Positions 7,837 through 55,615 of a DNA stretch of 64,000 nucleotides are shown here, piece after piece. The translations under genes were made by a program, and so were the position numbers. Source of the DNA: a virus; the IMG/VR virus record IMGVR_UViG_3300043137_000327, positions 1-64,000 of that record; one strand, 5' to 3'. The notes below the pieces were generated by a model. That model ran no database searches, was not told the DNA's origin, and worked only from the letters and a program-made list of their open reading frames with translations. How positions within the stretch are numbered: the first letter of the stretch is position 1; the number at the start of each line of letters is the position of its first letter.

Positions 7837-8118
7837 TTGGAATCATTCCCCATAAACTCATTTTTATTAAAAGTAAAATTAAAAGTTATGTTTTGGACTT
7901 ATTACGCAATTTGCGTTATCTATTGTTTCTATCAACTATTCACAAAATATCAAAATAGATATAATGAAGGTATGATTGGATTATCACCTGGCTTAGATTC
8001 TATTATGGTGGTGATGATGGCTTGGGTATTAGCGCCTATCGATGTATCCCTAACTTGGATTCGTTGGTATAAAGAAGCTGAAGAAGCTCGTAGAAGAAAT
8101 GATAAAAAAATATTATAA
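7837..8118 (+). CDS. hypothetical membrane protein
   Basis: 93-aa ORF with two hydrophobic segments. Confidence 0.4.
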   Translation: MESFPINSFLLKVKLKVMFWTYYAICVIYCFYQLFTKYQNRYNEGMIGLSPGLDSIMVVMMAWVLAPIDVSLTWIRWYKEAEEARRRNDKKIL

Positions 8119-13593: not shown

Positions 13594-13836
13594 ATGCCGT
13601 ATTTTGAAACAAACCCAGATGAAATTGAAGTTGATGTTAATGACTTTTTATCAGCATGTTCGAATAGTGAAATTAAAGATTTAGTTCAAGCCCTTAAAGA
13701 AGATGGGCATTTAGATGAGAGTGATGATGCTAACGATTTTGATATCTCTGTTCGTAAATTATTAGGTAATAGTTGGAGATTATCCAAAGAAGATGAGCAA
13801 ACAATTTTAAACATAACCAAAAAAATTATACTATAA
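13594..13836 (+). CDS. hypothetical acidic protein
   Basis: 80-aa ORF. Confidence 0.4.
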   Translation: MPYFETNPDEIEVDVNDFLSACSNSEIKDLVQALKEDGHLDESDDANDFDISVRKLLGNSWRLSKEDEQTILNITKKIIL

Positions 13837-22345: not shown

Positions 22346-23980
<1,635 letters not shown>

Positions 23981-34536: not shown

Positions 34537-34917
34537 ATGAGAGACAATAAAACAATTAATATGAGTTATACTATTCCACGCGGTTACACTATTACCCCAA
34601 AAGTGAAGTTCTTACGAACTAAGGAAGGCAAGAAACGTACACAATTAGTAGAGTTAACCCACAAACGTAAGGGTATCGCTAAACTATTCGGTAACGAAGA
34701 GTACGCCATTAAGTACATCCAATCATTGGAAATCAATAAGGTAACATCCAACGCCTTAGCCGGTAAGGGAGCACCATCCATTGGTAAACACGCAATACTA
34801 TTAGCCGGCAAAGATGCAGTAGCTGATAAAGAGCTAAATGGTATATACGATGATATGACTAATGAGGAGGCGACTCAATTGAACAATCCCTTTTACCAAC
34901 CCTTAAAATTAATCTAA
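34537..34917 (+). CDS. hypothetical protein (start may be the ATG at 34561)
   Basis: 126-aa ORF directly downstream of a class A promoter. Confidence 0.45.
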   Translation: MRDNKTINMSYTIPRGYTITPKVKFLRTKEGKKRTQLVELTHKRKGIAKLFGNEEYAIKYIQSLEINKVTSNALAGKGAPSIGKHAILLAGKDAVADKELNGIYDDMTNEEATQLNNPFYQPLKLI

Positions 34918-35855: not shown

Positions 35856-36047
35856 ATGAAAAAAGTATTATTCGCAGCAGTAGTTGCATTAACATTGGGA
35901 TTGACAGCATGTGGTAACGGAGCATCTAAGACCGAAACCGCAACCGATTCAACGGCAATAGATACGACAGCAGTAACAGCAGTAGATACAACTACGGCTC
36001 AGATTACGGCAGATACCGCATCTACATTTACTAAGGAAGTAAAATAG
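35856..36047 (+). CDS. small Thr-rich lipoprotein
   Basis: 63-aa ORF with a signal peptide and lipobox LTACG, then T/A/D-rich repeats. Confidence 0.45.
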   Translation: MKKVLFAAVVALTLGLTACGNGASKTETATDSTAIDTTAVTAVDTTTAQITADTASTFTKEVK

Positions 36048-38738: not shown

Positions 38739-39506
38739 ATGAAACGTTACATTTTCAAATCCGGCTTAGATATCGTTGCTCCACTCAAATGTGGAACTCG
38801 TTGGTTAGAGGGTTTAGATGTCGAAAATCGTATCGATACTTATTCATTTGGCATAGAGGATTTAAAAGAAAACATACATAGTGGAACTACTTTCATATGG
38901 AGAGGAGTAAGGGAACATTTTCTTTCCGCAATAGAAACCGATTATCATATCGAACCTGATAGAACGGATATATGGGAAAGTATATTATATTATCAAAAGT
39001 ATGGCGGACATTGGTATCCCTACTTATATAAGAAATTATACCCTATATGGAAAAAAACTCGTTTCCGATTTTGGAAATTAAGAGCCCTTTCCGAATTGAA
39101 TGAGGTAGCATCCGTAATACCCTACCATTTTAAAAAATATCACTTCATTGTACCCAAAGGATTTAGTACTGCTGAGGAAGCTCTAAATTCTCTATCATCC
39201 AAACATACCACTCGATTGGAAAGATTGATTGGTGACGAAGAGAAGTGGCTTCAATTAATGGTTGAGCCTCAATATAGTGAGAGAAGTTGGGAAGATTATT
39301 CGGATTTGGAAGATTCTCGTTTGAAAATGTTGGGTGAGGTAATGAATTTAAAAGCGGAAATTGAATTGAATGATAGAACATATCTTAATAGTTTAGAATC
39401 ACAAAGAATACAAATAAGAGAATTAGAGAAATCGAATTATAAATTACAAGCTAAGTTAGATTATACCGAAAATCTATTAGGTGGAAAACTTAATAAACTA
39501 ATTTAA
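38739..39506 (+). CDS. hypothetical protein, weakly sulfotransferase-like
   Basis: 255-aa ORF. N-terminal PLKCGTRWLEG resembles the PAPS 5'-PSB loop PKxGTTW. Ends with KLI. Confidence 0.3.
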   Translation: MKRYIFKSGLDIVAPLKCGTRWLEGLDVENRIDTYSFGIEDLKENIHSGTTFIWRGVREHFLSAIETDYHIEPDRTDIWESILYYQKYGGHWYPYLYKKLYPIWKKTRFRFWKLRALSELNEVASVIPYHFKKYHFIVPKGFSTAEEALNSLSSKHTTRLERLIGDEEKWLQLMVEPQYSERSWEDYSDLEDSRLKMLGEVMNLKAEIELNDRTYLNSLESQRIQIRELEKSNYKLQAKLDYTENLLGGKLNKLI

Positions 39507-39591
39507 ACAACTATCAATAGAGATAAGAAAAATTTCTTTTTGACGGAGCGACGTTCTCCCCCAACCCCCTTCCCCCTAAAATTAATATGAT

Positions 39592-40224
39592 ATGAGAAAG
39601 ATTTGGTACTTTGGTGATTCAAATACGGAAACATTTAATCCCAAATATATGTGGGTTAAGGAGTATATAGATTGGAAAGGTTATATCCCTAAACATTGGA
39701 CAGAGATTGTGGCTGAACGTATGGGATTAGTATCTCACAATTTAGGAGAAAGTGGATGTGATAACTATACTATATTCGATACATTAATAAATAACTTAGA
39801 TAGTATTTCAGATAACGATATTGTGGTGATTGGGTGGACTATACCAATTAGAGGTAGGATTGCCAATTTGGATATAAACGAATGGATTACGATAGTTCCA
39901 CACGGAGAACCAAATTTAAAATGTATATCCAATAATTCAATATGGGAATTAGTATCATTAAGAGATTCAGAATTATACATCGATGAAGTATTGGGTTGGC
40001 AAAAGCTGATTAGAAGAGCACTATCCAATAATAAGGTAGTATTCTGGTCTTACTTCGGAGAATTTTCAAATAAAGGTATAGTGGATTATAAATATTGGTT
40101 AGGTAAAACTGATATCCTTTCTATAAAAAGTGAAACTAAGGGATTTGTTCCCAATAGTCATTTTGGCGAAATGGGTAATGTGGTGATATCGGATGTTATT
40201 TTTAATGAAATTAATAAGGATTAA
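39592..40224 (+). CDS. putative SGNH/GDSL-family hydrolase
   Basis: 210-aa ORF with an N-terminal WYFGDSNTETF block (GDS(N) motif). Confidence 0.35.
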   Translation: MRKIWYFGDSNTETFNPKYMWVKEYIDWKGYIPKHWTEIVAERMGLVSHNLGESGCDNYTIFDTLINNLDSISDNDIVVIGWTIPIRGRIANLDINEWITIVPHGEPNLKCISNNSIWELVSLRDSELYIDEVLGWQKLIRRALSNNKVVFWSYFGEFSNKGIVDYKYWLGKTDILSIKSETKGFVPNSHFGEMGNVVISDVIFNEINKD

Positions 40225-40225
40225 A

Positions 40226-40257
40226 TTTGGAAATGTAAATAATTATTCTTATATTGT
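40226..40257 (+). promoter_or_regulatory. Bacteroidetes-type promoter, class B, giving a leaderless transcript
   Basis: TTTG 40226-40229, TATATTGT 40250-40257. ATG at 40263. Confidence 0.45.
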
Positions 40258-40262
40258 AAGTT

Positions 40263-40565
40263 ATGAATGTTAGTGTTTTGAATAAGTTAGAAAAAGGTTG
40301 GATATCATTGGATTGGTCTATATACTTAGTCAGAATGAATCTAACTTCAAAGCAATTATCTGAATTAGTTGATAAGTTGGATAATTGGAAATCTAATAAA
40401 TCTTGCAAAAGTATAATATTAGTAAAGTATAAAGTATTACCGGCGTATATTATATTAAATCGAATCGACTTTAAAAAATTAGGGAAGTATTTGATGGATA
40501 CAATGGTAAAGAGAGAAATGTATGAAGAATGCGCTCGTTTACAATTAATGATGGATAAATTATGA
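40263..40565 (+). CDS. hypothetical protein
   Basis: 100-aa ORF. Confidence 0.4.
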   Translation: MNVSVLNKLEKGWISLDWSIYLVRMNLTSKQLSELVDKLDNWKSNKSCKSIILVKYKVLPAYIILNRIDFKKLGKYLMDTMVKREMYEECARLQLMMDKL

Positions 40566-41803
40566 AAAATGTTGTTATAGTTGGCGGAGGTACAGCCGGT
40601 TGGTTAACCGCCTTAGTAGTAAATAAATTTTGGAAAGATACTAATGTTACTCTAATAGAGAGTTCTAAGATTGGTGTATTGGGAGCGGGTGAGGGTGGTA
40701 CTCCCAACTTTGGAAGAATGTTGAGTCTATTGGATATAAATCATAAAGAATTTTTTGAAAAAACAAATTCAACTGTAAAAGGTGGAATACATTTATTTAA
40801 TTGGACGGGTAATAATGAATTATCCAAACATTTATTTGTTGGAGAAGAGCCAAATAGATTTACCAAAAACTATGCATATCATTTTGATGCAAGGTTGGTA
40901 GCTGAATACTTTAAGAACGTTTCTATTAGTAGAGGAGTTAATTGGATTGATGGTGAAGTTGATACAATTAACAATATTGAAGATACAATTAAATCCATTT
41001 CGTTAAAAGATAATACTGTAATTGATTTGGATTTTATATTTGATTGTAGCGGATTCAGACGTATATTAATCGATGGTGTACATTCCGATGAATGGGTTGG
41101 ATATGAAAAATATCTAATGATGAATAAAGCATTCACATTCTTTTTACCACAATTCGATAAAAATATTGGCTATTCAAACACATATACTCATATGGTTTCG
41201 ATGAATTGTGGTTGGATGTTCCAAATACCATTACAACATAGATGGGGATGTGGATATGTTCATAATGATAATTATATCACAATAGATGAGGCTAAGAAAG
41301 AAGTGGAAAATTATTTAGGATATGAGGTAACTATACAAAAAACATTTGATTTTAAACCTGGTACCCACAAAAGAAGTTGGATTGGTAATTCAATATCAAT
41401 TGGATTATCTTATGGATTTATAGAACCATTAGAAGCAACTTCATTAATGTCTACCATTATGCAACTAAAAAGATTGATTGATATAGATTTTAATGAAGAA
41501 GCTAAAGATAGGTACAATGATTGGTGTTATCAAATAAATGAACAAAATTTAAACTTTATAAGATACCACTATCTATGCGAAAGAGATGATACTGATTTTT
41601 GGAAAGATTGTACATCCATGCCGTTGCCTGATAAATTGTATAAAATCTTAGATAAGAATAATTCGTTAATTCCAAAAAGTGATTCACAATTGTTGGATAT
41701 GTTGGAGTTGAAGGAATCTTCTGTCAATGAATTAACATTTTGTGTAAATAACTATTCTACAATTTTTATGAAAAATAAAAAACATAAAAACAAACTAATA
41801 TAA
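40562..41803 (+). CDS. flavin-dependent halogenase (tryptophan-halogenase family)
   Basis: 413-aa ORF. FAD-binding VIVGGGTAGWLTA and halogenase-type CGWMFQIPL (the GWxWxIP motif). Ends with KLI. Confidence 0.55.
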   Translation: MKNVVIVGGGTAGWLTALVVNKFWKDTNVTLIESSKIGVLGAGEGGTPNFGRMLSLLDINHKEFFEKTNSTVKGGIHLFNWTGNNELSKHLFVGEEPNRFTKNYAYHFDARLVAEYFKNVSISRGVNWIDGEVDTINNIEDTIKSISLKDNTVIDLDFIFDCSGFRRILIDGVHSDEWVGYEKYLMMNKAFTFFLPQFDKNIGYSNTYTHMVSMNCGWMFQIPLQHRWGCGYVHNDNYITIDEAKKEVENYLGYEVTIQKTFDFKPGTHKRSWIGNSISIGLSYGFIEPLEATSLMSTIMQLKRLIDIDFNEEAKDRYNDWCYQINEQNLNFIRYHYLCERDDTDFWKDCTSMPLPDKLYKILDKNNSLIPKSDSQLLDMLELKESSVNELTFCVNNYSTIFMKNKKHKNKLI

Positions 41804-41804
41804 T

Positions 41805-42443
41805 ATGGAAAAAATAGTATTCGATGATGATACCTTTATTTGGAAAACAAAATTAAATCTTACCTCATTTAAAGATGAAATATTAGGTTTATGTAATGAG
41901 GTAGTTAATAGTTCCGATGAATTTAATTTTGATGCATTTCCTTATTCCAGAATACAAGATGATGTAAATTTCTTAGGTAATATTGTTATTAAAACTAAAT
42001 TAGATGAAATTGCTCAATTATCTATAAACTATTGCAAACAAATACATGATGATAAAGGTATAGATATTAATATGGTAGAAACCGATGCATGGGTTAATAT
42101 CGTAAGAGCTGATAATCCAGTGCAACCAAATTTTAAAGAAGGACATGAGAAATACCATATACATACTGAAATAAACAAAGCTAATAAAGCATTTGTACCA
42201 TCTTACACTTATGTATATTATGTTCAAATGCCTGATAATATAACAGGCGATGATGCGGTTTTATATTTTAAAAGTAAAAATGGTAATGAGTATTCGGTTT
42301 TACCAAATGAAGATGAATTAATAATTATGGAAGCAGATGTTCCACATGCACCAAATTCTTCACCAAATTCTACTAAAGATAGAATTGTATTTGCAGGAAA
42401 TGTTGGATTTAATTACATTAAAAAAGAAAAATCTCTAATATAA
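41805..42443 (+). CDS. hypothetical protein (possible cupin/dioxygenase)
   Basis: 212-aa ORF with HEKYHIHTE...VPHAP His clusters. Ends with SLI. Confidence 0.3.
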   Translation: MEKIVFDDDTFIWKTKLNLTSFKDEILGLCNEVVNSSDEFNFDAFPYSRIQDDVNFLGNIVIKTKLDEIAQLSINYCKQIHDDKGIDINMVETDAWVNIVRADNPVQPNFKEGHEKYHIHTEINKANKAFVPSYTYVYYVQMPDNITGDDAVLYFKSKNGNEYSVLPNEDELIIMEADVPHAPNSSPNSTKDRIVFAGNVGFNYIKKEKSLI

Positions 42444-42450
42444 TAATAAT

Positions 42451-43020
42451 ATGTTTATAAAGTATTTTGAAAATTTTTTAACAAAAGATGAATGTAATTC
42501 TATAATAGATATGGGTGAATCTATTGAATTAATGGAAATGAAGTCATCATATATAGTTAATGGTAAATTGGTTGGAGAAAATGTAAAATGGGATGGTAAT
42601 AAAAGAGTAGGAGGATATTTTATTAATGAATTATTAGAAACACAATTAATCAAAGAAGTATCTAAAAAAATAATTAATCTTTCAAATGAGTTAAATCCCT
42701 TTAATGGTGTAACTTATACATCTATTCCAAAATATTCGTTTAATAGATATGGTGTAGGTGATTTTTTAGATTGGCATTCGGATAGTCACGAAATATTGAA
42801 TGGTGCAACTATAACCTATGTTATCCAACTCAATGATGAATATGATGGTGGTAATGTAAAATATATAATAAATGATGTTGAGTATTCGGTTAATAAAAAG
42901 CAAGGTAGTATTTTTGTATTTGATTCAAATATAACACATTCAGTAGATACAGTATTGAGTGGTGTACGATACTCGATAAATGTTTGGCCATCCAAAATAG
43001 TTAAAAAATCTTTAATATAA
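42451..43020 (+). CDS. 2OG-Fe(II) oxygenase (prolyl-hydroxylase-like)
   Basis: 189-aa ORF. HxD...H...R triad DWHSDSH ... ITHSVDTV ... RYSINVW. Ends with SLI. Confidence 0.5.
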   Translation: MFIKYFENFLTKDECNSIIDMGESIELMEMKSSYIVNGKLVGENVKWDGNKRVGGYFINELLETQLIKEVSKKIINLSNELNPFNGVTYTSIPKYSFNRYGVGDFLDWHSDSHEILNGATITYVIQLNDEYDGGNVKYIINDVEYSVNKKQGSIFVFDSNITHSVDTVLSGVRYSINVWPSKIVKKSLI

Positions 43021-43778
43021 TGTTAGTAGATAATAAATTTATATATCTAAGCCTACCAAGATGCGCATCGACTGCATTTCATTATTCTTGTATTGTATCC
43101 GATTTAAATGTTAAAACCTACACCAATACGTTGATACCACTAAATGATAATGTTGATTTTAAATCGATTGATAAATCTAATTTAATGAATCACATTTATC
43201 ATGGACATGAATCGATTATTGATTTACAATCTAAATTTGGCATAAATTATCCCGTAATCGCGGTAAAGAGGGATAGGCATGAAAGATTTTATTCACTATA
43301 TAAACATATTTTGTTTGATTTAAAAAGAAGCGGCTATCCTAAAATTTATGATGCATTTTCTAAACTTACATTGGATGAGTTATTTTTTTTTACTAAAAAT
43401 GATATAATTAATAAAAAGCAAAGATGGGATGTAATATGTAGATATTTAATTGATTTGAAATTAATAGATAAAAAAGTAGATATTATAAATTGGGAGCAAA
43501 CTATATTTGGATATGCTATAAATATGATTGATATATTACTGACACCTATATCATATTGGACAAATAATGATTCAAATATTATTTGGTTCGATTTTACTAA
43601 AATGAATGAGTTAGAAAGTTGGGTTTCCGAAAAAGTAAATAAACCTTTTAAATTAGAATCAGCAAATTCTAGTAAACATATTGAATGTAATGTTATATTG
43701 GATGATGTATTTATAAACAAATACAATGATATCTATGATTATTACGATTTACCAAAATCAATTAATACCTTAATATAA
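43020..43778 (+). CDS. hypothetical protein, weakly sulfotransferase-like
   Basis: 252-aa ORF. N-terminal LSLPRCASTAFHYS resembles the PRSGST sulfotransferase P-loop. Ends with TLI. Confidence 0.3.
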   Translation: MLVDNKFIYLSLPRCASTAFHYSCIVSDLNVKTYTNTLIPLNDNVDFKSIDKSNLMNHIYHGHESIIDLQSKFGINYPVIAVKRDRHERFYSLYKHILFDLKRSGYPKIYDAFSKLTLDELFFFTKNDIINKKQRWDVICRYLIDLKLIDKKVDIINWEQTIFGYAINMIDILLTPISYWTNNDSNIIWFDFTKMNELESWVSEKVNKPFKLESANSSKHIECNVILDDVFINKYNDIYDYYDLPKSINTLI

Positions 43779-43780
43779 TA

Positions 43781-44068
43781 ATGATTAACTATAAAGAAAT
43801 ATTTGAAGCGTGGAAGATATCGTTTAAACCCACACCTAAGCAAGAAGAATTAGCTATAAAACGATTAAAGGTTTGTTTGGGATGTAATTATAGGCAAGAA
43901 ATATTAAAAGGAGTAAACTGGTCGGCAATATGTGGTGATTGTGGTTGCCCATTGAACAAAAAAGTATTTTCACCTATGTTCAATCCATGTACTCAAAAAA
44001 AATGGAAAGATGTAGATTCATTATATATGGATATTGTAAATGATAAAGATAATAAAACGATTATTTAA
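43781..44068 (+). CDS. Cys-rich zinc-ribbon-like protein
   Basis: 95-aa ORF with CLGCNYRQ...CGDCGCPLN...C. Confidence 0.4.
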   Translation: MINYKEIFEAWKISFKPTPKQEELAIKRLKVCLGCNYRQEILKGVNWSAICGDCGCPLNKKVFSPMFNPCTQKKWKDVDSLYMDIVNDKDNKTII

Positions 44069-44116
44069 ATAGTCATATATTTATAAGTGTAAAAAATAAA
44101 TAAATAAAAAATTCAT

Positions 44117-45607
44117 ATGAAAGCAACCATTATAGGTAGTGATTTATTGCAAAAAGGAAATGATGTACAATTTTTGGAAATAAACACAAATACGACCATT
44201 TATAATAGTGGAGCCGAAATGTTAGATTATACCGCATTATTTGAAATGTTGGTATCTAATAATATATCGGAGTTTCACTTTATTTGGACAGAAGTAACAG
44301 CATATACTCCATTAGAAGAGTCCTTCCGATTTAAGGAATTATTGGAAGAAAAATGTATTGAAAACGATATATCTTTTACAGATTACGTTGTTCCAATGAA
44401 TTCTATAACTGTGCCTTTTATAGAAGATGCCTCTCATAAATTTATTCTAAGACAGTCATATGATACAACTGCACTAATAGATGAAACATATTGTGCTGAT
44501 AAATTTGAGTTTTTTAATTTAATGAGTGGTTCTCAATATACTCCATCTACATATTTTAGTGGTAGTACATTACAATTAAATGAATTTAATAGTTTAGATA
44601 CATCCAATCCAAATGTACCAAATACGTTAATCAAAGCTAAATCGCCAACATATGATTTAGATATGTATCCTGCGTTATACACACTTAGTGATATTTCGGA
44701 GTTAACGGATTTAAAAAATGAATTGGGTTCTGATTATTTAGTACAGGAATTTATTTATTCAGACGATAACATTGTAGATGATAGATATTCAATCATTCGT
44801 AGTATAGATATTATATATGGTTCAGAGTTAGATGTTATAAACTTAGGAGGATATAAGCAGAGTACAATAATTCCAATGAATTTTACTGAAGATGAGTTTG
44901 TATCTGGCACAAAGAGATTAAATCAAAAAAGTAGAATAAAGTATATATCTAAACCGATTAGTCGATTTATGGGAGTAGATTATCATACTGATGATGATTC
45001 TGTTATTTTGGATTATACAGGTTCATTGGTAGATGTTGATACCATACAATTGGGAGATTATATAAAATCGGTAAACTTCCAAGATATACACGGAAATAAT
45101 GCAGCTGCATTAGACCAAACTCTTTTAGAAACATATGGTTGGGAAGCTACTTTACCGGAAATAAATGAAACACTAACGCCCGAATCATCTAGTTTAGTAA
45201 ATGTAGTTTCGGCATCTGTTGATACCATCTACATACGAATTACATTAGAAGATGGTAAAAGTTGGGTAGATTCACCTTCTTGTACATATTTCATAGAAGA
45301 AAATGATTCAACTAAGACCCGTTTTGAAAAAGTAAATAATATGGTAGTAGGTGATAAATTGGTTGTAACGGATTCATTGACAAACGAATTAACTACAATA
45401 GTAATTACATCATTGGAAATGGAACATGCACAAAAAACCATTTATAATTTAGATTTCGAACCATCGGATTTATTCTTAGTAGATGTAGGTGATGGATTAT
45501 TTAGTGTGATGCACAACTCGTGTTGGTGTCCTTGGAACTATTGTGGGTATTTTTGTAACTACTACGGATGCCCAACCTGCGGTGGTGGTGGTTTTGAAAA
45601 AGTATAA
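44117..45607 (+). CDS. hypothetical protein with Cys-rich C-terminal tail
   Basis: 496-aa ORF. The last 35 aa are HNSCWCPWNYCGYFCNYYGCPTCGGGGFEKV. Confidence 0.5.
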   Translation: MKATIIGSDLLQKGNDVQFLEINTNTTIYNSGAEMLDYTALFEMLVSNNISEFHFIWTEVTAYTPLEESFRFKELLEEKCIENDISFTDYVVPMNSITVPFIEDASHKFILRQSYDTTALIDETYCADKFEFFNLMSGSQYTPSTYFSGSTLQLNEFNSLDTSNPNVPNTLIKAKSPTYDLDMYPALYTLSDISELTDLKNELGSDYLVQEFIYSDDNIVDDRYSIIRSIDIIYGSELDVINLGGYKQSTIIPMNFTEDEFVSGTKRLNQKSRIKYISKPISRFMGVDYHTDDDSVILDYTGSLVDVDTIQLGDYIKSVNFQDIHGNNAAALDQTLLETYGWEATLPEINETLTPESSSLVNVVSASVDTIYIRITLEDGKSWVDSPSCTYFIEENDSTKTRFEKVNNMVVGDKLVVTDSLTNELTTIVITSLEMEHAQKTIYNLDFEPSDLFLVDVGDGLFSVMHNSCWCPWNYCGYFCNYYGCPTCGGGGFEKV

Positions 45608-45632
45608 TTAAAAATAATTAAAAATATATAAA

Positions 45633-45773
45633 ATGGCAAATAACCTTAGAGTACATAGACCAGCATCAGTAATTAAAGCAAACATTACTCCAATTTCAAA
45701 TGAATTGAAATCAAAAGTATCAGTAGCATTTAGTGAAATTGTAAGCAAAATTAAAGCTAAACATTTGAATTAA
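45633..45773 (+). CDS. small protein (46 aa)
   Basis: Unannotated ORF MANNLRVHRPASVIKANITPISNELKSKVSVAFSEIVSKIKAKHLN. Its stop overlaps the next ATG (TAATG). Confidence 0.3.
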   Translation: MANNLRVHRPASVIKANITPISNELKSKVSVAFSEIVSKIKAKHLN

Positions 45774-46468
45774 TGGCATCATCCAGATTACATCAATTAA
45801 TGATAGTTGATAGTATCGTGGGTGATGAAATTGGAAATATATTATTATCAAAAATAGAAATAGATTATGGTAATGATATTAAAAAACATAGTGATTTTAC
45901 ATTAAGAAATATTGTTCACGATGTTTCCAATTACATCGAAATAGTATTAAATTCCGATTGGAATATTTTAAATAAAATTACCATACAAGAGATACAACAA
46001 CTATGGGATGAATATATTACAAATTATCGTAATAATTATTCATCCCATAATTATATCGAAACTAATACAATTTTATTAGATAGTAGAGTTGATGGTATTG
46101 GATATTATTGGGTTGATTTAAATACTCGTTATTCAATTGAAATGATTGTCAGAATGGAAAATTGTGGTAGATGTAATTATGGTAATACTTTAATAGAATT
46201 ACGAGAAACCACAAAAGATTCAAGTAAATCCCACGTCGTTATTGTATATAATATAGCATCCGGTTTAATAAGACAAATCAAAGGTAAAAACGATATAATA
46301 CCATCCAAAGAATATTGGGATGAAATATTTAATTTCTATATGAATAGTCCATATTATATAGCTGGGCACGAATATACACAAAAAGAAGGGTTAGATTTTA
46401 AACCTGAAATGTTTAGTAAAGAGAAATATCAATTAGTTAAATCTAAAATTATAAATAAAATATTTTAA
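45773..46468 (+). CDS. hypothetical protein
   Basis: 231-aa ORF. Confidence 0.45.
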   Translation: MASSRLHQLMIVDSIVGDEIGNILLSKIEIDYGNDIKKHSDFTLRNIVHDVSNYIEIVLNSDWNILNKITIQEIQQLWDEYITNYRNNYSSHNYIETNTILLDSRVDGIGYYWVDLNTRYSIEMIVRMENCGRCNYGNTLIELRETTKDSSKSHVVIVYNIASGLIRQIKGKNDIIPSKEYWDEIFNFYMNSPYYIAGHEYTQKEGLDFKPEMFSKEKYQLVKSKIINKIF

Positions 46469-46483
46469 AAATAACTAGATATT

Positions 46484-47050
46484 ATGAATTATACTATAAA
46501 CAATAATTTTTGTGATAAAACTGAAGCTAATTCTATAATTGATTTTTGTATCAAATATGGCGAACCCTTTTCATATCAACCAAACGAAGTCTGGGATTGT
46601 AGAAGAATATATGATGAATCATTTAAAACAAAAATATTAAATAAATTAATCAATTATTACAAAAATGGTGAATTCAAATTATGGTTTGATTATAATCATT
46701 TTAATGTAAAAAATTTTAATATTAGTTTAACTTCGTATTATGATGGTAGATTTTTAAACTTACATAAAGATAAAGTAAGTGAGCTAACTACTGTTATAGT
46801 TTTATCAGATGGGTTTGATGGTGGTCAATTTGCAATATCTGATAATATTAATCCATCTATTAATTTTGAAAACTTAAATGGTATTAAGACCTTCGATTTA
46901 AAATTGGGAGATTCCATATCTTTCAATGGCTCCAACGTATATCACGGAGTTTTACCGGTGACTAAAAATATACGATATGCATTAAATATTTGGATGACAG
47001 AATCAGACTACGATTATCCACCAACTAAAATTAATAAAACATTGATATGA
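46484..47050 (+). CDS. 2OG-Fe(II) oxygenase (prolyl-hydroxylase-like)
   Basis: 188-aa ORF. LHKDKVSE ... VYHGVLPV ... RYALNIW (HxD...H...R). Ends with TLI. Confidence 0.55.
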   Translation: MNYTINNNFCDKTEANSIIDFCIKYGEPFSYQPNEVWDCRRIYDESFKTKILNKLINYYKNGEFKLWFDYNHFNVKNFNISLTSYYDGRFLNLHKDKVSELTTVIVLSDGFDGGQFAISDNINPSINFENLNGIKTFDLKLGDSISFNGSNVYHGVLPVTKNIRYALNIWMTESDYDYPPTKINKTLI

Positions 47051-47694
47051 GAGTTGCAATATTGACAAGCGCAAGAAGTGGCTCTACTAGCTTATATCAT
47101 CTAATAGAAGCTCATCTAAACAAAAAAAATCACATTTGTATATCAGAACCATTTAACAATTATTGGAGAGAAAAGATAAATATACAAACGTATGATATAG
47201 ATTTTTTTGAAAATAAAGAAGATGTTTTTATTAAAACATTTGTTAGTAAATCTCAAAAGCCAAATAGTTTGTTAGATAATGAAGATGGATATTGGAATTG
47301 GTTTTTTAATTACTTTGAAAAAGTAATTTTATTAGATAGATTGGATAAGGATTTACAAAGTGAAAGTCTAGCATATCATATGAAAAAAGATGATATTCAT
47401 AGTTGGCAGAAAAAGCAAATTTATGATTTATCAATAACTACATCGGAAGAAATACAAAATAGTAAAAATATACTATTAAATGAATCCAATATGATGCACG
47501 AATTTTCTAAAAAAGGCTACCCCTTATATTATTTTGAAGATATTTTTATCAAAAAAGATAAAGGTAAAATCATTGATATTTTTAAATATTTGGATATAAA
47601 TTTGAACGAATCGATATATAATGATTATGTATATTCGGATGCGTGTAAAATTAGATTGAATATTGGAGAAACTAAATTTAAAAGTATAATATAG
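47047..47694 (+). CDS. sulfotransferase-like protein
   Basis: 215-aa ORF. N-terminal ILTSARSGSTSLYHLI (the RSGST 5'-PSB loop of Stf0-type sulfotransferases). ATGA overlap with the upstream gene. Confidence 0.4.
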   Translation: MRVAILTSARSGSTSLYHLIEAHLNKKNHICISEPFNNYWREKINIQTYDIDFFENKEDVFIKTFVSKSQKPNSLLDNEDGYWNWFFNYFEKVILLDRLDKDLQSESLAYHMKKDDIHSWQKKQIYDLSITTSEEIQNSKNILLNESNMMHEFSKKGYPLYYFEDIFIKKDKGKIIDIFKYLDINLNESIYNDYVYSDACKIRLNIGETKFKSII

Positions 47695-47711
47695 AAATCT
47701 AATATATTATA

Positions 47712-47743
47712 TTTGGTATTGTCACAAATTTTTACTATATTTG
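47712..47743 (+). promoter_or_regulatory. Bacteroidetes-type promoter, class B, giving a leaderless mRNA
   Basis: TTTG 47712-47715, TATATTTG 47736-47743. ATG at 47749. Confidence 0.45.
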
Positions 47744-47748
47744 TGACT

Positions 47749-48072
47749 ATGATAATAGTACCCGAAACACCCATAACAGACATTAGTTTCCAAAAATGGA
47801 ACAATTGTATTAGAATTGATTTAAAAGATGAAGAATTGGATGAATCATTCCACTACTATGTAATCCCATTATTAAATGTAAGCCAAGAAGAATTAGAAGA
47901 ATCACTCGATAGTATTCCCGCATTGTGGTCATCCGAATCAAATGAGTTCGAATCTGAAGAGGGAGTTACCCTATATACTATGCGTTTATTCGATGAAGAT
48001 ATGCCAGAATTGACTACTGAAGAGGAGGTTGAAATACTTTATAAAATTTTAACAAAAAAAGACCTCTATTAA
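47749..48072 (+). CDS. hypothetical acidic protein
   Basis: The ORF-track start (TTG at 47713) lies in the promoter. Trimmed to the ATG at 47749. Confidence 0.4.
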   Translation: MIIVPETPITDISFQKWNNCIRIDLKDEELDESFHYYVIPLLNVSQEELEESLDSIPALWSSESNEFESEEGVTLYTMRLFDEDMPELTTEEEVEILYKILTKKDLY

Positions 48073-48830: not shown

Positions 48831-48856
48831 TGACAATTTGTCAAAATATATTTAAA

Positions 48857-48885
48857 AAGTATGACTAATCGTCATACTTTTTTTA
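48857..48885 (+). terminator. Rho-independent terminator (aagtatgac / gtcatactt + T7)
   Basis: 9-bp perfect stem, 5-nt loop, T-run. Confidence 0.8.
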
Positions 48886-49328: not shown

Positions 49329-49384
49329 TTCGATTTTTTATCGTATCTTTGAAGGGTGGTAGCGTGTAGTTATCACCTTTTTTT
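49321..49384 (+). promoter_or_regulatory. promoter (TTGG...TATCTTTG) immediately followed by a hairpin + T-run. Either the terminator for the Hsp20 gene or an attenuator
   Basis: TTGG 49321-49324, TATCTTTG 49344-49351, conserved AGGGTGG at +1, then stem agggtgg/tcacctt and TTTTTTT (49353-49384). Confidence 0.4.
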
Positions 49385-53920: not shown

Positions 53921-55615
53921 ATGATATCATTAGGTATTTCCGCATTTTACCACGATTCTGCGGTATGTTTATTTGAAGATGGGAAAGTTATATCGGCAAT
54001 AGAAGAAGAGAAGTTATCAGGCATAAAGCATGATAACTCTTTTCCATTACAAGCGATAAAATGGGTTTTGAGTAACTCTAATAAAACTATATCAGATGTA
54101 GATACTATATGCTGGTATGAAGAACCAAGTTTAAAATACGATAGAGTAAAGAATACTTTAGGTAAGTATTGGTGGAAGAATAGAAAGACTTGGAAAAAAT
54201 TCAAAGAAGAATTCGAATCAACCGAAGGTAATTTAAAAGATTATTTATCTAAGACAATAAATTTTAATGGTAATATACAATATGTAAAACATCATTATTC
54301 TCATTTAGCTTTTTCATATTACACTTCTCCATTTCACGACGCAGTTGGTATATCAATAGATGGTGTGGGTGAATGGGATACTGCATTAGCAGTTAGATGT
54401 AAAGATAATACATTTGAAGAAATAAATTCAATGAAATTTCCAAACTCATTGGGATTAGTATATTCTACAATTACTGCGTATTTAGGATTCAAACCAAACA
54501 ATGGTGAGTACAAAGTAATGGGGTTAGCACCATATGGCGACCCATCAAGATATAAACATATTTTTGATAAAATATTTAGATTCAATAAAAAAGGAGTAAT
54601 AGAAATAAATCAAAAGTATTTTACTTGGCAATATTCTAATACCGATATGTACACATATGATTTAGTAAAATTAATTGGTATAGAACCAAGAGAAGCTGAA
54701 TCAAATATAGAACAGCATCATATGGATTTAGCCGCATCTTTACAAAAGTGGTATGAAAGTTGTTTTTATTTCTTTGTTAATAATTGTATGCAAAATGCCG
54801 ACACTGCTAATTTAGTATTGGGTGGTGGTTCTGCTTATAATGGTACTGCTAATGGTAAAATAAAAAAACATACAGCCGTTACGGAGTTATGGATTCCATT
54901 TGCACCATCTGATGCCGGTTCGGCAATTGGAGCATGCTTATATCATTGGCATAACATATTGGGTAACCCTAAAGTAATAGGAGGTGATAATATTTCTCCA
55001 TATTTAGGACCTGAATGGGATAATAAAGAATTGATGGAAATCATATTAAAAGAACGAAAGAGTAATGTTACTAAATATGATAGTATTAAAATGCTTTGTA
55101 AGGATGTAGCAAACCTTATAAACGAAGGTAATATTATTGGTTGGTTTCAGGGCAGAACTGAATTTGGTGCAAGAGCATTGGGTAATCGTTCTATATTAGG
55201 TAATCCACATCTTTCAGATATTAGAGATAGAATTAATAAGGTTGTCAAAAAAAGAGAAATGTTTAGACCATTTGCTCCATCGGTAACATTTGAAGATTAT
55301 GATAAGTATTTTTCATCGGAAGGTGAAGTACCATATATGAATCAAGTTGTTAAAGTGACCGAATATAAATCAATTCCATCGGTAACTCACGTTGATAAAT
55401 CAGCAAGAATACAAACCGTTAGAAAAGAGATGAATCCTTTATATTACGACTTATTAAAAGAATTTGAAAAAGTGAGTGGTACACCAATACTTTTAAATAC
55501 TTCATTTAATTTAAGAGGACACACAATGACAAATGACCCTAAAAAAGCAATTTGGACTTTTTATAATTGTGACATGGATTATTTGGTATTGGGTAATTAT
55601 TTGATAAGTAAATAA
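53921..55615 (+). CDS. carbamoyltransferase (NodU/CmcH/TobZ family)
   Basis: 564-aa ORF. The N-terminus MISLGISAFYHDSAVCLFEDGKVISAIEEEKLSGIKHD closely parallels the family N-terminus (ILGI..HDSAA.L..DG.IVAA.EEER..R.KHD). The length is typical of the family. Confidence 0.75.
   Translation: MISLGISAFYHDSAVCLFEDGKVISAIEEEKLSGIKHDNSFPLQAIKWVLSNSNKTISDVDTICWYEEPSLKYDRVKNTLGKYWWKNRKTWKKFKEEFESTEGNLKDYLSKTINFNGNIQYVKHHYSHLAFSYYTSPFHDAVGISIDGVGEWDTALAVRCKDNTFEEINSMKFPNSLGLVYSTITAYLGFKPNNGEYKVMGLAPYGDPSRYKHIFDKIFRFNKKGVIEINQKYFTWQYSNTDMYTYDLVKLIGIEPREAESNIEQHHMDLAASLQKWYESCFYFFVNNCMQNADTANLVLGGGSAYNGTANGKIKKHTAVTELWIPFAPSDAGSAIGACLYHWHNILGNPKVIGGDNISPYLGPEWDNKELMEIILKERKSNVTKYDSIKMLCKDVANLINEGNIIGWFQGRTEFGARALGNRSILGNPHLSDIRDRINKVVKKREMFRPFAPSVTFEDYDKYFSSEGEVPYMNQVVKVTEYKSIPSVTHVDKSARIQTVRKEMNPLYYDLLKEFEKVSGTPILLNTSFNLRGHTMTNDPKKAIWTFYNCDMDYLVLGNYLISK

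Follow-up and report, generated by a model that had tools for sequence, protein, structure and literature searches.

A phage gene block of tailoring-type enzymes centred on an ATP-grasp-Hint protein with a hypervariable Cys-rich tail: a possible RiPP-like system

The block of tailoring-type genes at positions 38739-47694 of the analysed window (a 64,000-nt stretch of DNA from an uncultured large phage) is centred on a 496-aa protein that fuses an ATP-grasp-like amidoligase domain, a Hint domain and a Cys-rich tail, a protein that has not been described before. It is tentatively proposed that the block forms one RiPP-like system: the Hint domain would release a disulfide-rich peptide, which enzymes sharing a C-terminal tag would decorate. 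Among the four kinds of substrate that the preliminary description of this DNA had considered (a phage-encoded peptide, virion proteins, host surface polymers or nucleic acid), the RiPP-like option is favoured, with the Cys-rich tail as a strong candidate for the substrate of the tailoring enzymes.

All 13 ORFs lie on the + strand (Table 1), with successive spacings of 85, 38, -4, 1, 7, -1, 2, 48, 25, -1, 15 and -4 nt, and gene calling on an identical 115.7-kb JGI contig gave the same set, so that the tight packing reported earlier is borne out. The core order (halogenase, 2OG oxygenase, 2OG oxygenase, 252-aa gene, zinc-ribbon gene, central gene, micro-ORF, 2OG oxygenase) is kept in ~80 IMG/VR loci (uncultured viral contigs), in which the central gene is 59-84% identical and a minority of which carry a sulfotransferase-like gene. 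Homologs of the central gene at ~25% identity still adjoin 2OG oxygenases, APS kinase, zinc-ribbon homologs and sulfotransferase- or GDSL-like genes, while no homolog of the proposed system was found among GenBank phages and GTDB genomes. The gene set is thus co-conserved rather than scattered, which, together with a true halogenase and PF13640 oxygenases, supports the original view of a cluster of tailoring-type enzymes.

Table 1. Features of the block (positions are those of the window)
Feature	Coordinates	Strand	Matches and remarks	C-terminus
255-aa protein, variable member	38739..39506	+		NKLI (tagged)
Probable SGNH/GDSL-type hydrolase, 210 aa, variable member	39592..40224	+	invariant residues	untagged here
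100-aa protein, variable	40263..40565	+	sub-threshold matches only	untagged
Flavin-dependent halogenase, short form, 413 aa	40562..41803	+	Pfam Trp_halogenase E 1.9e-87	KNKLI (tagged)
Divergent probable 2OG-Fe(II) oxygenase, 212 aa, core	41805..42443	+	PF13640 E 0.0065, 17.8 bits, sub-cut-off	KSLI (tagged)
P4H-type 2OG-Fe(II) oxygenase, 189 aa, core	42451..43020	+	PF13640 E 5.1e-13, 50.2 bits	KSLI (tagged)
252-aa conserved protein	43020..43778	+	directly upstream of zinc-ribbon gene in this clade's loci	NTLI (tagged)
Cys-rich zinc-ribbon-like protein, 95 aa	43781..44068	+	PHROG 13558	KTII (tagged)
Central gene, residues 1-285: ATP-grasp-like amidoligase domain	44117..44971	+	apparently circularly permuted	
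Central gene, residues 290-467: Hint (Hedgehog/intein) domain	44984..45517	+	invariant His466-Asn467 end	
Central gene, residues 468-496 + stop codon: tail	45518..45607	+	six Cys, SCWCPWNYCGYFCNYYGCPTCGGGGFEKV; proposed released, modified peptide	
46-aa micro-ORF	45633..45773	+	directly downstream of central gene	untagged
231-aa protein, variable member	45773..46468	+		NKIF (hydrophobic pair)
P4H-type 2OG-Fe(II) oxygenase, 188 aa, core	46484..47050	+	PF13640 E 8.5e-8, 33.5 bits	KTLI (tagged)
Probable sulfotransferase, 215 aa	47047..47694	+	RSGST PAPS-loop; orthologs' matches	KSII (tagged)

The central protein had previously been noted for its Cys-dense C-terminal tail, which is indeed real and conserved, while the ATP-grasp-Hint fusion preceding it had been overlooked. 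The ligase domain is always followed in the same protein by a Hint domain ending in an invariant His-Asn and then by a hypervariable tail, and this ATP-grasp-then-Hint architecture was not found in PDB or BFVD. The Hint domain lacks both the N-terminal Cys/Ser nucleophile and the TxxH block, which leaves only C-terminal Asn cyclisation as a plausible activity. The residue after the His-Asn pair is variable, the three relatives without the His also have no tail, and Asn cyclisation (as in inteins and BILs) is the only role known for an invariant HN at the C-terminus of a Hint domain. In some relatives the tail is followed by a second self-cleaving module (i.e. a mini-intein without a usable C-extein, or a Peptidase_S74-like chaperone), which would mark the end of the tail as a processed terminus.

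The tail itself measures ~29 aa here and 5-84 aa across relatives, and it is dispensable in some members. When 33 close relatives of normal length were compared (comparison A1), C469, W470, C471, P472, C476, G477, C480, C485 and C488 were invariant and the loop positions showed an entropy of 1.3-3 bits; across the full set of 120 close homologs, a minority differ at Trp470 and Pro472. The number of cysteines is even in 255 of the 259 distinct tails. The AF2 model of the tail is of low confidence (pLDDT <50).

The two small genes that flank the central gene were rightly regarded as genes, as each is conserved in more than 50 loci. The 95-aa protein matches a PHROG of unknown function (E 4.4e-7) and keeps a CxxC...CxxCGCP...C pattern in 54 orthologs; its gene adjoins the central gene in all loci read, close and distant; in the distant L086, L089 and L090, the homolog follows the central gene immediately. 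The micro-ORF is kept in 53 loci as MA..ERPxQxIK...P.S..LK.K...A.Q.V...IK.KHL, and in L087, L086 and L089 the place after the central gene is taken by a homolog or an equivalent small ORF. The micro-ORF product contains no Cys, Trp or Tyr and is unlike a classical precursor peptide.

Nearly every flanking protein family closes with the same tag, x-[LIV]-[ILV]-COOH (typically K-[ST]-L-I), at a frequency of 0.9-1.0 at gene positions -5..-1 and +2..+5 and of 0.02-0.05 in the central gene and its micro-ORF (0/53 micro-ORF homologs), giving a profile that is sharply centred on this untagged pair. In seven non-homologous families the tag is present in 97-100% of orthologs; the counts are 48/48 for each of the two P4H-type oxygenases and 54/54 for the 252-aa protein, and two hydrophobic residues terminate all 37 halogenase orthologs and 12 of the 13 homologs of the 231-aa protein. 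The codons vary synonymously (five Ser codons, TTA/TTG/CTA for Leu, ATA/ATT for Ile, and all three stops), and the tag was found neither in ~100 other closely spaced genes in the window nor in the halogenase/2OG enzymes of HTVC008M and P-SSM2, used as pelagiphage/cyanophage comparison. A protein-level tag common to nearly all flanking families marks the block, independently, as one system. Very short C-terminal motifs common to unrelated enzymes of one pathway are likewise found in C-terminal targeting peptides, such as the peroxisomal PTS1 (-SKL), encapsulin cargo-loading peptides and class I PDZ ligands ([S/T]-x-hydrophobic-COOH). As an analogy only, the block tag ([S/T]-[L/I]-[I/L]-COOH) formally fits the last of these; no PDZ domain, TPR domain or compartment was detected within the block.

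Of the enzymes, the flavin-dependent halogenase was correctly recognised from the start: its profile matches include PrnA (E 1e-53), VirX1 (1.3e-47) and the peptide halogenase entry 5uao (MibH; 1.9e-33), and GGGTAGW, the catalytic Lys, GWMFQIP and EPLE are all in register with PrnA. The PrnA match stops near residue 436 of 538, which means that the C-terminal module binding (free) Trp is absent. None of the five loci with Trp-free tails has a halogenase within 10 kb, and the enzyme is present in L087 (with a Trp-containing tail) and in most close-clade loci; yet L056, L065, L037 and L063 have Trp-rich tails and no halogenase in the available sequence, and the correlation is confounded by phylogeny. 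The two prolyl-hydroxylase-type 2OG oxygenases also stand, both exceeding the PF13640 cut-off of 27 bits. The 212-aa protein, whose gene is found in nearly all loci, is probably a third, as suggested by the invariance of H120, H181 and R193 across 40 homologs and by the PF13640 match of its homolog L086:7600-8262 (5.2e-5). The 215-aa RSGST protein has no Pfam match itself, and its assignment as a probable sulfotransferase follows from the invariant R10-S-G-S-T-S15 of the family and from its orthologs, of which 4/19 match Sulfotransfer_1 (9.8e-5) or Sulfotransfer_3 (1.8e-4) and two match Stf0, besides a weak profile match to the CurM sulfotransferase (E 0.71) and the APS kinase gene found next to the system in relatives.

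From the folds, conserved residues, synteny, tag, even Cys counts and tail hypervariability, we infer a route in which the 496-aa protein would be scaffold, maturase and precursor in one. Its Hint domain, having lost the N-terminal splicing chemistry, would cut behind Asn467 through Asn cyclisation and free a peptide of ~29 aa, whose six cysteines (8-12 elsewhere) would pair as disulfides. Before or after release, the halogenase might act on Trp (Trp470 being nearly invariant), the three P4H-type oxygenases on Pro472 and other residues, and the sulfotransferase(s) on Tyr475. The K-[ST]-L-I tag would recruit these enzymes by docking on the untagged core (i.e. the ATP-grasp-Hint protein or the 46-aa protein), and the ATP-grasp domain may catalyse ATP-dependent formation of an amide bond on the peptide or at its C-terminus.

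Cyanophages and a pelagiphage also carry halogenase and 2OG oxygenase pairs while lacking the central protein and its homologs, so that such enzymes can have other substrates. It is somewhat unlikely, in our view, that the block tailors a glycan or small metabolite (capsule/LPS decoration, or an antibiotic-like compound), with the ATP-grasp-Hint protein as the amide ligase of the pathway and the Cys tail incidental. A set of sulfotransferase, carbamoyltransferase and SGNH genes does recall Nod-factor or polysaccharide decoration. A carbamoyltransferase gene lies 6 kb downstream of the block within the window, and relatives have genes for carbamoyltransferase, Glyco_transf_25, epimerase, UDP-glucose dehydrogenase, dTDP-sugar isomerase and APS kinase next to the system; these neighbours fit glycan decoration equally well and count against the RiPP-like reading. 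Iyer et al. (2021) predicted the same role for the cyanophage halogenase/2OGFeDO/carbamoyltransferase cluster (PMC7824862). The cyanophage clusters (S-SSM6a, P-SSM2; PMC7824862) and VirX1 indeed resemble the block in that a T4-like aquatic phage carries a halogenase (28-36% identity for the cyanophage and pelagiphage enzymes) beside 2OG-Fe(II) oxygenases, with a carbamoyltransferase nearby. However, the cyanophage and pelagiphage enzymes have no tag and their halogenases are ~70-120 aa longer, while the described cyanophage cluster has no sulfotransferase-like genes, zinc-ribbon gene or micro-ORF. Moreover, glycan tailoring leaves unexplained both the constant ligase-Hint-HN fusion with its even-Cys hypervariable tail and the centring of the tagged block on this gene; the upstream sugar and carbamoyl genes are mostly untagged in L004 and L089, and the halogenase has no module for free tryptophan.

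We regard it as unlikely that the 496-aa protein stays uncleaved as a scaffold, with the tail as a Zn/Fe-binding or redox module and the docked enzymes modifying another protein (virion, host or their own C-termini). CxC and CxxC spacings are also typical of metal sites, a zinc-ribbon partner is present in every locus examined, and the Peptidase_S74-type trimerising chaperone of some relatives is typical of virion fibres. The tag, moreover, is a conserved free C-terminus, and the ATP-grasp relatives RimK, TTLL and LysX act on protein C-termini. In comparison with RimK/S6, tubulin tyrosine ligase/TTLL and LysX/LysW, the block domain has small-molecule ligases as its closer structural neighbours, and the micro-ORF product is basic without an acidic C-terminal tail. 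A tail of such variable length and sequence, dispensable in some members, would be unusual for a cofactor site, and neither the invariant HN nor the coincident loss of His and tail fits an uncleaved protein. Finally, T4-like phages are known for hypervariable islands of auxiliary genes, the G+C content of the block (26-29%) is the lowest in the window and at many junctions stop and start codons overlap in TTAATATAATG or ATATGA, but that these are independent auxiliary metabolic genes with 'LI-stop' as a DNA signal (translational coupling or an AT-rich initiation region) is highly improbable, as the ending persists through synonymous codons and all three stops, also occurs with 18-85 nt to the next gene (255-aa, 95-aa and 215-aa genes) and is absent from the other tightly packed window genes, the window shows no excess of the exact word YTAATATAA (7 matches versus 10 expected), and gene order is conserved.

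The favoured release of a modified peptide is comparable to RiPP pathways with Trp halogenases (MibH) and ATP-grasp maturases (graspetides) and to conotoxin-type sets, in which a ribosomal hypervariable Cys-rich core likewise stands beside a conserved pro-region and enzymes of the same chemical classes are encoded alongside; the conotoxin-type modifications comprise bromo-Trp, hydroxy-Pro, sulfo-Tyr and disulfides. Unlike in RiPPs, the 'leader' would be a folded two-domain enzyme of 467 aa, release would be autocatalytic instead of by a protease, and the enzymes bear a C-terminal tag in place of a leader-binding RRE domain. The block's ATP-grasp domain is closer to GspS/YgiC-type ligases than to graspetide synthetases. 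Compared with BIL domains, BUBL BIL2, pretoxin-HINT and Hedgehog autoprocessing, the Hint domain is without the nucleophile and TxxH block, sits downstream of a fused ligase and would release a short peptide rather than a toxin domain or ubiquitin-like protein.

For the remaining flanking genes, the earlier assignments hold in part. Of three sulfotransferase calls, that of the RSGST protein stands through its orthologs only, and those of the 255-aa and 252-aa proteins are unsupported by profile searches, the resemblance being at motif level. The 255-aa protein (with a 'PLKCGT' loop) has no Pfam, PHROG or NCBIfam match, orthologs in L024 and L063 only and no profile relation to the 252-aa family. 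For the latter, none of 592 homologs has a Pfam domain, 1/34 orthologs weakly matches Sulfotransfer_2 (0.049), and the hhalign alignment with the RSGST family is confined to the P-loop region (probability 27%). The probable SGNH/GDSL hydrolase has no Pfam match, but 11 homologs all keep S10 (in GDS), G55, N58 and H190; the tag is carried by 8 of 10 homologs, and tagged GDSL-like genes occur in the distant loci L089 (267 aa, E 5e-4) and L090 (214 aa, E 2.9e-4). The 231-aa protein has no Pfam match and its PDB profile search was uninformative, while the 100-aa gene recurs in L006, L037 and L057. In L087, a tagged enzyme shows sub-threshold radical SAM and SPASM matches.

The central gene of the block encodes a 496-aa protein in which an ATP-grasp-like domain, a Hint domain and a Cys-rich tail (residues 468-496) are fused. 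For a RiPP system, the tail is a candidate core peptide and the Hint domain a candidate means of its release. The best-supported model, which we hold tentatively, is that of a RiPP-like system: a disulfide-rich, hypervariable peptide would be set free autocatalytically, the tagged enzymes (i.e. flanking block enzymes with a short hydrophobic C-terminal ending, typically K-[ST]-L-I-COOH) would modify this peptide, and the ATP-grasp domain would perform a ligation step.

The window belongs to a large low-G+C phage; a 115.7-kb JGI contig is identical to it and related contigs reach 280-330 kb. It also codes for an Hsp20, and its T4-type baseplate wedge protein has its best cultured relatives, at 39-40% identity, in Flavobacterium phage immuto and Microcystis phage Mel-JY01. 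All genes read in the block and its surroundings lie on the + strand, the thirteen ORFs of the block being as the preliminary description had them, and the G+C content of the window is lowest here (0.257-0.288 at 40001-48000 versus 0.30-0.40 elsewhere). No terminator-like hairpins occur within the block, which is compatible with its co-transcription; the first ones 3' of it are listed in the table. A sigma-70 promoter scan returned fewer sites than in shuffled sequence. Elsewhere in the window are a full-length GroEL-type chaperonin (PHROG 5725, E 3e-183), which may be relevant to the folding of this phage's unusual proteins, and a 63-aa ORF in which a Thr/Ala/Asp-rich segment comes after a signal of lipoprotein type (MKKVLFAAVVALTLGLTAC...).

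Positions of the features discussed (L numbers denote related IMG/VR loci)
Feature	Sequence	Position
Block of thirteen genes	window	38739-47694
255-aa protein	window	38739-39506
210-aa SGNH protein	window	39592-40224
212-aa oxygenase	window	41805-42443
189-aa oxygenase	window	42451-43020
252-aa protein	window	43020-43778
Zn-ribbon protein	window	43781-44068
496-aa central protein	window	44117-45607
46-aa protein (micro-ORF)	window	45633-45773
188-aa oxygenase	window	46484-47050
215-aa RSGST protein	window	47047-47694
Small ORFs with tag-like endings	window	7888-8118; 13594-13836; 34537-34917
GroEL-type chaperonin	window	22349-23980
63-aa ORF	window	35856-36047
First terminator-like hairpins 3' of block	window	48854-48882; 49351-49381
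NolO-type carbamoyltransferase	window	53921-55615
NolO-type carbamoyltransferase	L004	770-2407
NolO-type carbamoyltransferase	L087	5017-6681
NolO-type carbamoyltransferase	L089	7976-9547
38-aa micro-ORF	L004	2404-2520
38-aa micro-ORF	L087	7352-7468
38-aa micro-ORF	L089	7857-7973
38-aa micro-ORF	L091	9431-9547

Megablast gave no match of the block to GenBank phages. With tblastn, the co-occurrence of the gene set in other genomes was borne out by about 80 IMG/VR loci that carry the 496-aa gene, in near-constant order (halogenase, 212-aa oxygenase, 189-aa oxygenase, 252-aa gene, Zn-ribbon, 496-aa gene, micro-ORF, 188-aa oxygenase); the 215-aa gene is present in about one third of these loci, and the 255-, 210-, 100- and 231-aa genes are sporadic.

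The flavin-dependent halogenase proposed from its motifs matches Pfam PF04820 with 294.4 bits (cut-off 21; E 1.9e-87), PrnA with E 1e-53 and VirX1 with E 1.3e-47, and its FAD loop GGGTAGW, already pointed out in the preliminary description, is the same in the PrnA alignment. The catalytic Lys ('nstvKggihlfnw' opposite 'ngafKaaikfvnw' in PrnA) and the Glu of EPLE ('fiEPLEats' opposite 'flEPLEstg'), which we take to be K79 and E346 in PrnA numbering, are both found, while in the WxWxIP region GWMFQIP lies opposite GWTWKIP, with Phe in place of the second Trp. Since the protein is short (413 aa versus 497-554 aa in solved Trp halogenases) and its PrnA alignment stops at residue 436 or earlier, of 538, the C-terminal module that binds free tryptophan is absent.

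The two P4H-type 2OG-Fe(II) oxygenases also stand (PF13640 at 50.2 bits for the 189-aa protein and 33.5 bits for the 188-aa protein; cut-off 27), and the iron triad HxD/E...H and the 2OG-binding basic residue can be read in both. The 212-aa protein scores 17.8 bits, below this 27-bit cut-off; in its family H120 (in HTE), H181 and R193 are invariant over 40 homologs, one of which matches PF13640. Three sulfotransferases had been proposed as well, of which the RSGST protein is supported via its orthologs alone, whereas the 252-aa and 255-aa proteins (the PF03567-like candidates) are without profile support. The RSGST protein of the window itself has no Pfam sulfotransferase match (PF00685 / PF13469), but 4 of 19 orthologs do, at 9.8e-5 or 1.8e-4, and two match Stf0 at 0.1; the profile match of the family to the CurM sulfotransferase is weak (E 0.71), with the 5'-phosphosulfate-binding loop R10-S11-G12-S13-T14-S15, invariant over 19 homologs, opposite 'SPRSGSTLL' of CurM ST. 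In the 252-aa family, one of 34 orthologs has a sulfotransferase match (E 0.049), the PDB profile search returned no sulfotransferase, and the homolog search gave at least 120 close relatives, none of them annotated. hhalign gave no support for kinship with the RSGST family, either of the 252-aa protein (probability 27%, the P-loop alone being aligned) or of the 255-aa protein (0.1%). The residues PRCAST...HGH...RDRHERFYS resemble HS 2-O-sulfotransferase motifs. As for the SGNH assignment of the 210-aa protein, its Ser, Gly, Asn and His are invariant, and it is on these residues that the assignment is based. PDB profile searches of the 252-aa, 215-aa, 212-aa, 231-aa and 210-aa families gave uninformative or spurious matches.

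These enzyme classes, and phage clusters of halogenases and 2OG oxygenases, are already known, and a halogenated-metabolite role in glycan or small-molecule tailoring has been proposed for cyanophage clusters (Iyer et al. 2021, PMC7824862). The main rival to the RiPP-like model, which we consider unlikely, is that the enzymes tailor a glycan or a small molecule in the same manner, and the carbamoyl, sugar and APS kinase genes nearby speak for it. The cyanophage cluster consists of a halogenase, a 2OGFeDO and a carbamoyltransferase together with a HemK-like methylase, a HAD phosphatase and a cupin (PMC7824862); the first three are present in the window, and no methylase, HAD or cupin was detected among the 13 block genes. 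The glycan or small-molecule rival leaves unexplained both the Hint-tail architecture and the centring of the tag on it.

The central protein carries no Pfam domain; its close homologs, about 496 aa long, number 621, and its wider family of 273 clusters at 50% identity extends down to 24% identity. Searched by sequence alone, the family has no significant match in Pfam, PHROGs, NCBIfam or PDB, and an AlphaFold model from 35 close homologs was unusable (pLDDT 47); with homologs at 22-28% identity added, a diverse alignment of 113 sequences led to pLDDT 87 and pTM 0.77. Residues 1-285 then show an ATP-grasp fold, with E21-x-N23, R112, D116, D122, K173 and R228 invariant in the 113-sequence alignment; of these, E21-x-N23, K173, R112 and R228 (ExN, Lys and Arg) are candidate Mg/ATP ligands. 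Residues 290-467 have a Hint fold (Foldseek E 6e-8 and TM 0.78 against the Hedgehog autoprocessing domain), and their profile matches that of the genuine mini-inteins found farther downstream in some relatives with 97.9% probability (E 3.3e-13).

In fact, this Hint domain is degenerate. Where an intein has its nucleophilic Cys, Ser or Thr (position 1), the close clade has His290 and the distant clade Lys, and S-P-S-C, which is not conserved, lies opposite the TxxH of block B. The terminal H466-N467, on the other hand, is invariant in the 113 diverse homologs, HN being present in 55 of 59 representatives. It is followed at +1 by S, T, A, G, D, P, N, Q, F, Y, V, I or L (i.e. by no conserved nucleophile), and because the Cys, Ser or Thr that splicing needs is not kept there, the domain does not qualify as a splicing intein and would at most cleave at its C-terminus. 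Judged by inteins and BIL domains, the one plausible chemistry left is Asn cyclisation, with a predicted cleavage between Asn467 and residue 468.

The tail behind this site follows the pattern x-C-W-C-P-W-x-Y-C-G-x-x-C-x-x-x-x-C-x-x-C-...-K-hydrophobic in 33 normal-length close relatives, in which the Cys residues, Trp470, Pro472 and Gly477 are invariant, Trp473 and Tyr475 nearly so, and the loops hypervariable; when the set is widened to all 120 close homologs, a minority of tails have other residues in place of Trp470 and Pro472. Across the whole family the tail sequence changes completely and its length ranges from 5 to 84 aa, yet the Cys count is even in 255 of 259 distinct tails (6 in 177, 8 in 70, 10 in 6 and 12 in 2), which suggests that the Cys residues pair, disulfides being the simplest case. 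No tail is present in the three representatives that lack this His of the HN pair. In many relatives a second self-cleaving module follows the tail, either a mini-intein or a Peptidase_S74-like intramolecular chaperone. The appended mini-intein is canonical, with Cys at its start and HN at its end, and since only 1-6 residues without a +1 nucleophile come after this HN, splicing is impossible. Together, Cys evenness, hypervariability, the joint loss of His and tail, and the appended modules argue for the tail being a cargo with processed ends. That the protein would instead remain uncleaved, as a scaffold with a metal-binding tail, we regard as less likely, indeed improbable.

One or two mini-inteins stand at the extreme C-terminus in P0122, P0124, P0128, P0130-P0133, P0216, P0243 and other family members. 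The Peptidase_S74-like module, identified by motif alone (...KSD..YKENI...GVIAQEL...VDY.KIDVEFKKIN), is appended in P0119, P0150, P0156, P0158, P0163, P0173, P0180, P0181, P0200, P0347 and P0370. In some relatives the intein Cys directly follows the HN of the family. Relatives built as Hint(HN)-peptide-(Cys1)intein recall the layout of SICLOPPS, used for engineered peptide cyclisation, and by this analogy their products could be cyclic peptides. The 46-aa ORF was set aside as a precursor, since Cys, Trp and Tyr are all missing from it and its sequence is well conserved, not hypervariable.

An ending [KN]-[KST]-[LI]-I is found on 8 of the 13 block proteins, and elsewhere in the window on only 2 of about 105 ORFs. 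Among orthologs, two hydrophobic residues end the halogenase (37/37), the 212-aa (49/50), 189-aa (48/48), 188-aa (48/48), 252-aa (54/54), Zn-ribbon (53/54) and 215-aa (19/19) proteins; for the central protein and the micro-ORF product the counts are 1/60 and 0/53. The frequency of the tag is 0.89-1.00 at positions -5 to -1 relative to the central gene, 0.02 at the gene itself, 0.05 at +1, 0.78-0.92 at +2 to +5, and 0.1-0.25 beyond about ±8 genes. Tagged genes also surround central-gene homologs at about 25% identity; in HTVC008M and P-SSM2, neither of which has such a central gene, the halogenase and 2OG genes do not carry the tag. Among the tagged proteins of other loci are GDSL-like and sulfotransferase-like ones, 2OG oxygenases and an enzyme whose radical SAM and SPASM matches are sub-threshold. 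The tag is read as a candidate docking signal for an untagged core component. An explanation at the DNA level is highly improbable, and an LI-stop ending as DNA signal was rejected, because the tag codons vary synonymously with all three stop codons in use and the DNA word is not enriched in the window, which places the selection on the protein. The endings KKIL, KKIIL and LKLI of three small window ORFs outside the block could mark dispersed tag carriers or be due to chance.

The RiPP-like model has a bolder form, which is doubtful: a new peptide logic, in which the degenerate Hint domain would free a hypervariable, disulfide-rich mini-peptide, a halogenated, hydroxylated and sulfated 'phage conotoxin', with every tailoring enzyme brought in by K-[ST]-L-I-COOH. 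The cargo would sit behind a degenerate, C-terminal-cleaving Hint domain in the phage protein itself, and a tag of three to four residues would be read by the ATP-grasp-Hint scaffold or the 46-aa partner, with no leader-binding domain.

No relatives of the central protein were found in 50,697 GenBank phage records (tblastn) or in a scan of GTDB genomes, and no two-domain structural match in PDB or BFVD, the BFVD matches covering the Hint domain alone. In the searchable literature, no description was found of the tag or, when ATP-grasp was looked for together with Hint or intein domains in phages or RiPPs, of the architecture. Among phages, halogenases and 2OG oxygenases occur widely as 'auxiliary' genes without known substrate, for which this lineage offers a concrete candidate in the same block. 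If true, the model would imply a new autocatalytic route for the release of ribosomal peptides, a new family of hypervariable disulfide-rich peptides (present here in uncultured viral and metagenomic contigs alone, not in cultured phages or GTDB), and, in the tag, a minimal C-terminal means of assembling a multi-enzyme pathway, which could be used for engineered enzyme recruitment. The tag also provides a simple rule to delimit the system in metagenomes and to find further member enzymes, such as the one weakly matching radical SAM/SPASM.

Whether the halogenase gene goes with the tail Trp was considered across loci. In the clade with Trp-free tails no halogenase lies within 10 kb in five loci; an APS kinase is directly upstream in 3/5, a Zn-ribbon homolog follows the central gene in 3/5 (L086, L089 and L090), and tagged genes follow it in 4/4 loci with DNA read. 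A halogenase is present at one locus whose tail contains Trp and is followed by an intein, and likewise in the majority of close-clade loci with enough flank. A strict rule was rejected, since four Trp-tail loci of this clade show no halogenase in the sequence examined, and the correlation is suggestive but confounded by phylogeny.

The NolO-type carbamoyltransferase lies 6 kb 3' of the block in the window and directly upstream of the system in relatives, often beside an APS kinase, Glyco_transf_25, DUF6734 and sugar-nucleotide enzymes, mostly untagged. In several related loci it adjoins a conserved 38-aa micro-ORF, which ends in ...DPFIY(N/K)H where read (L089 and L091).
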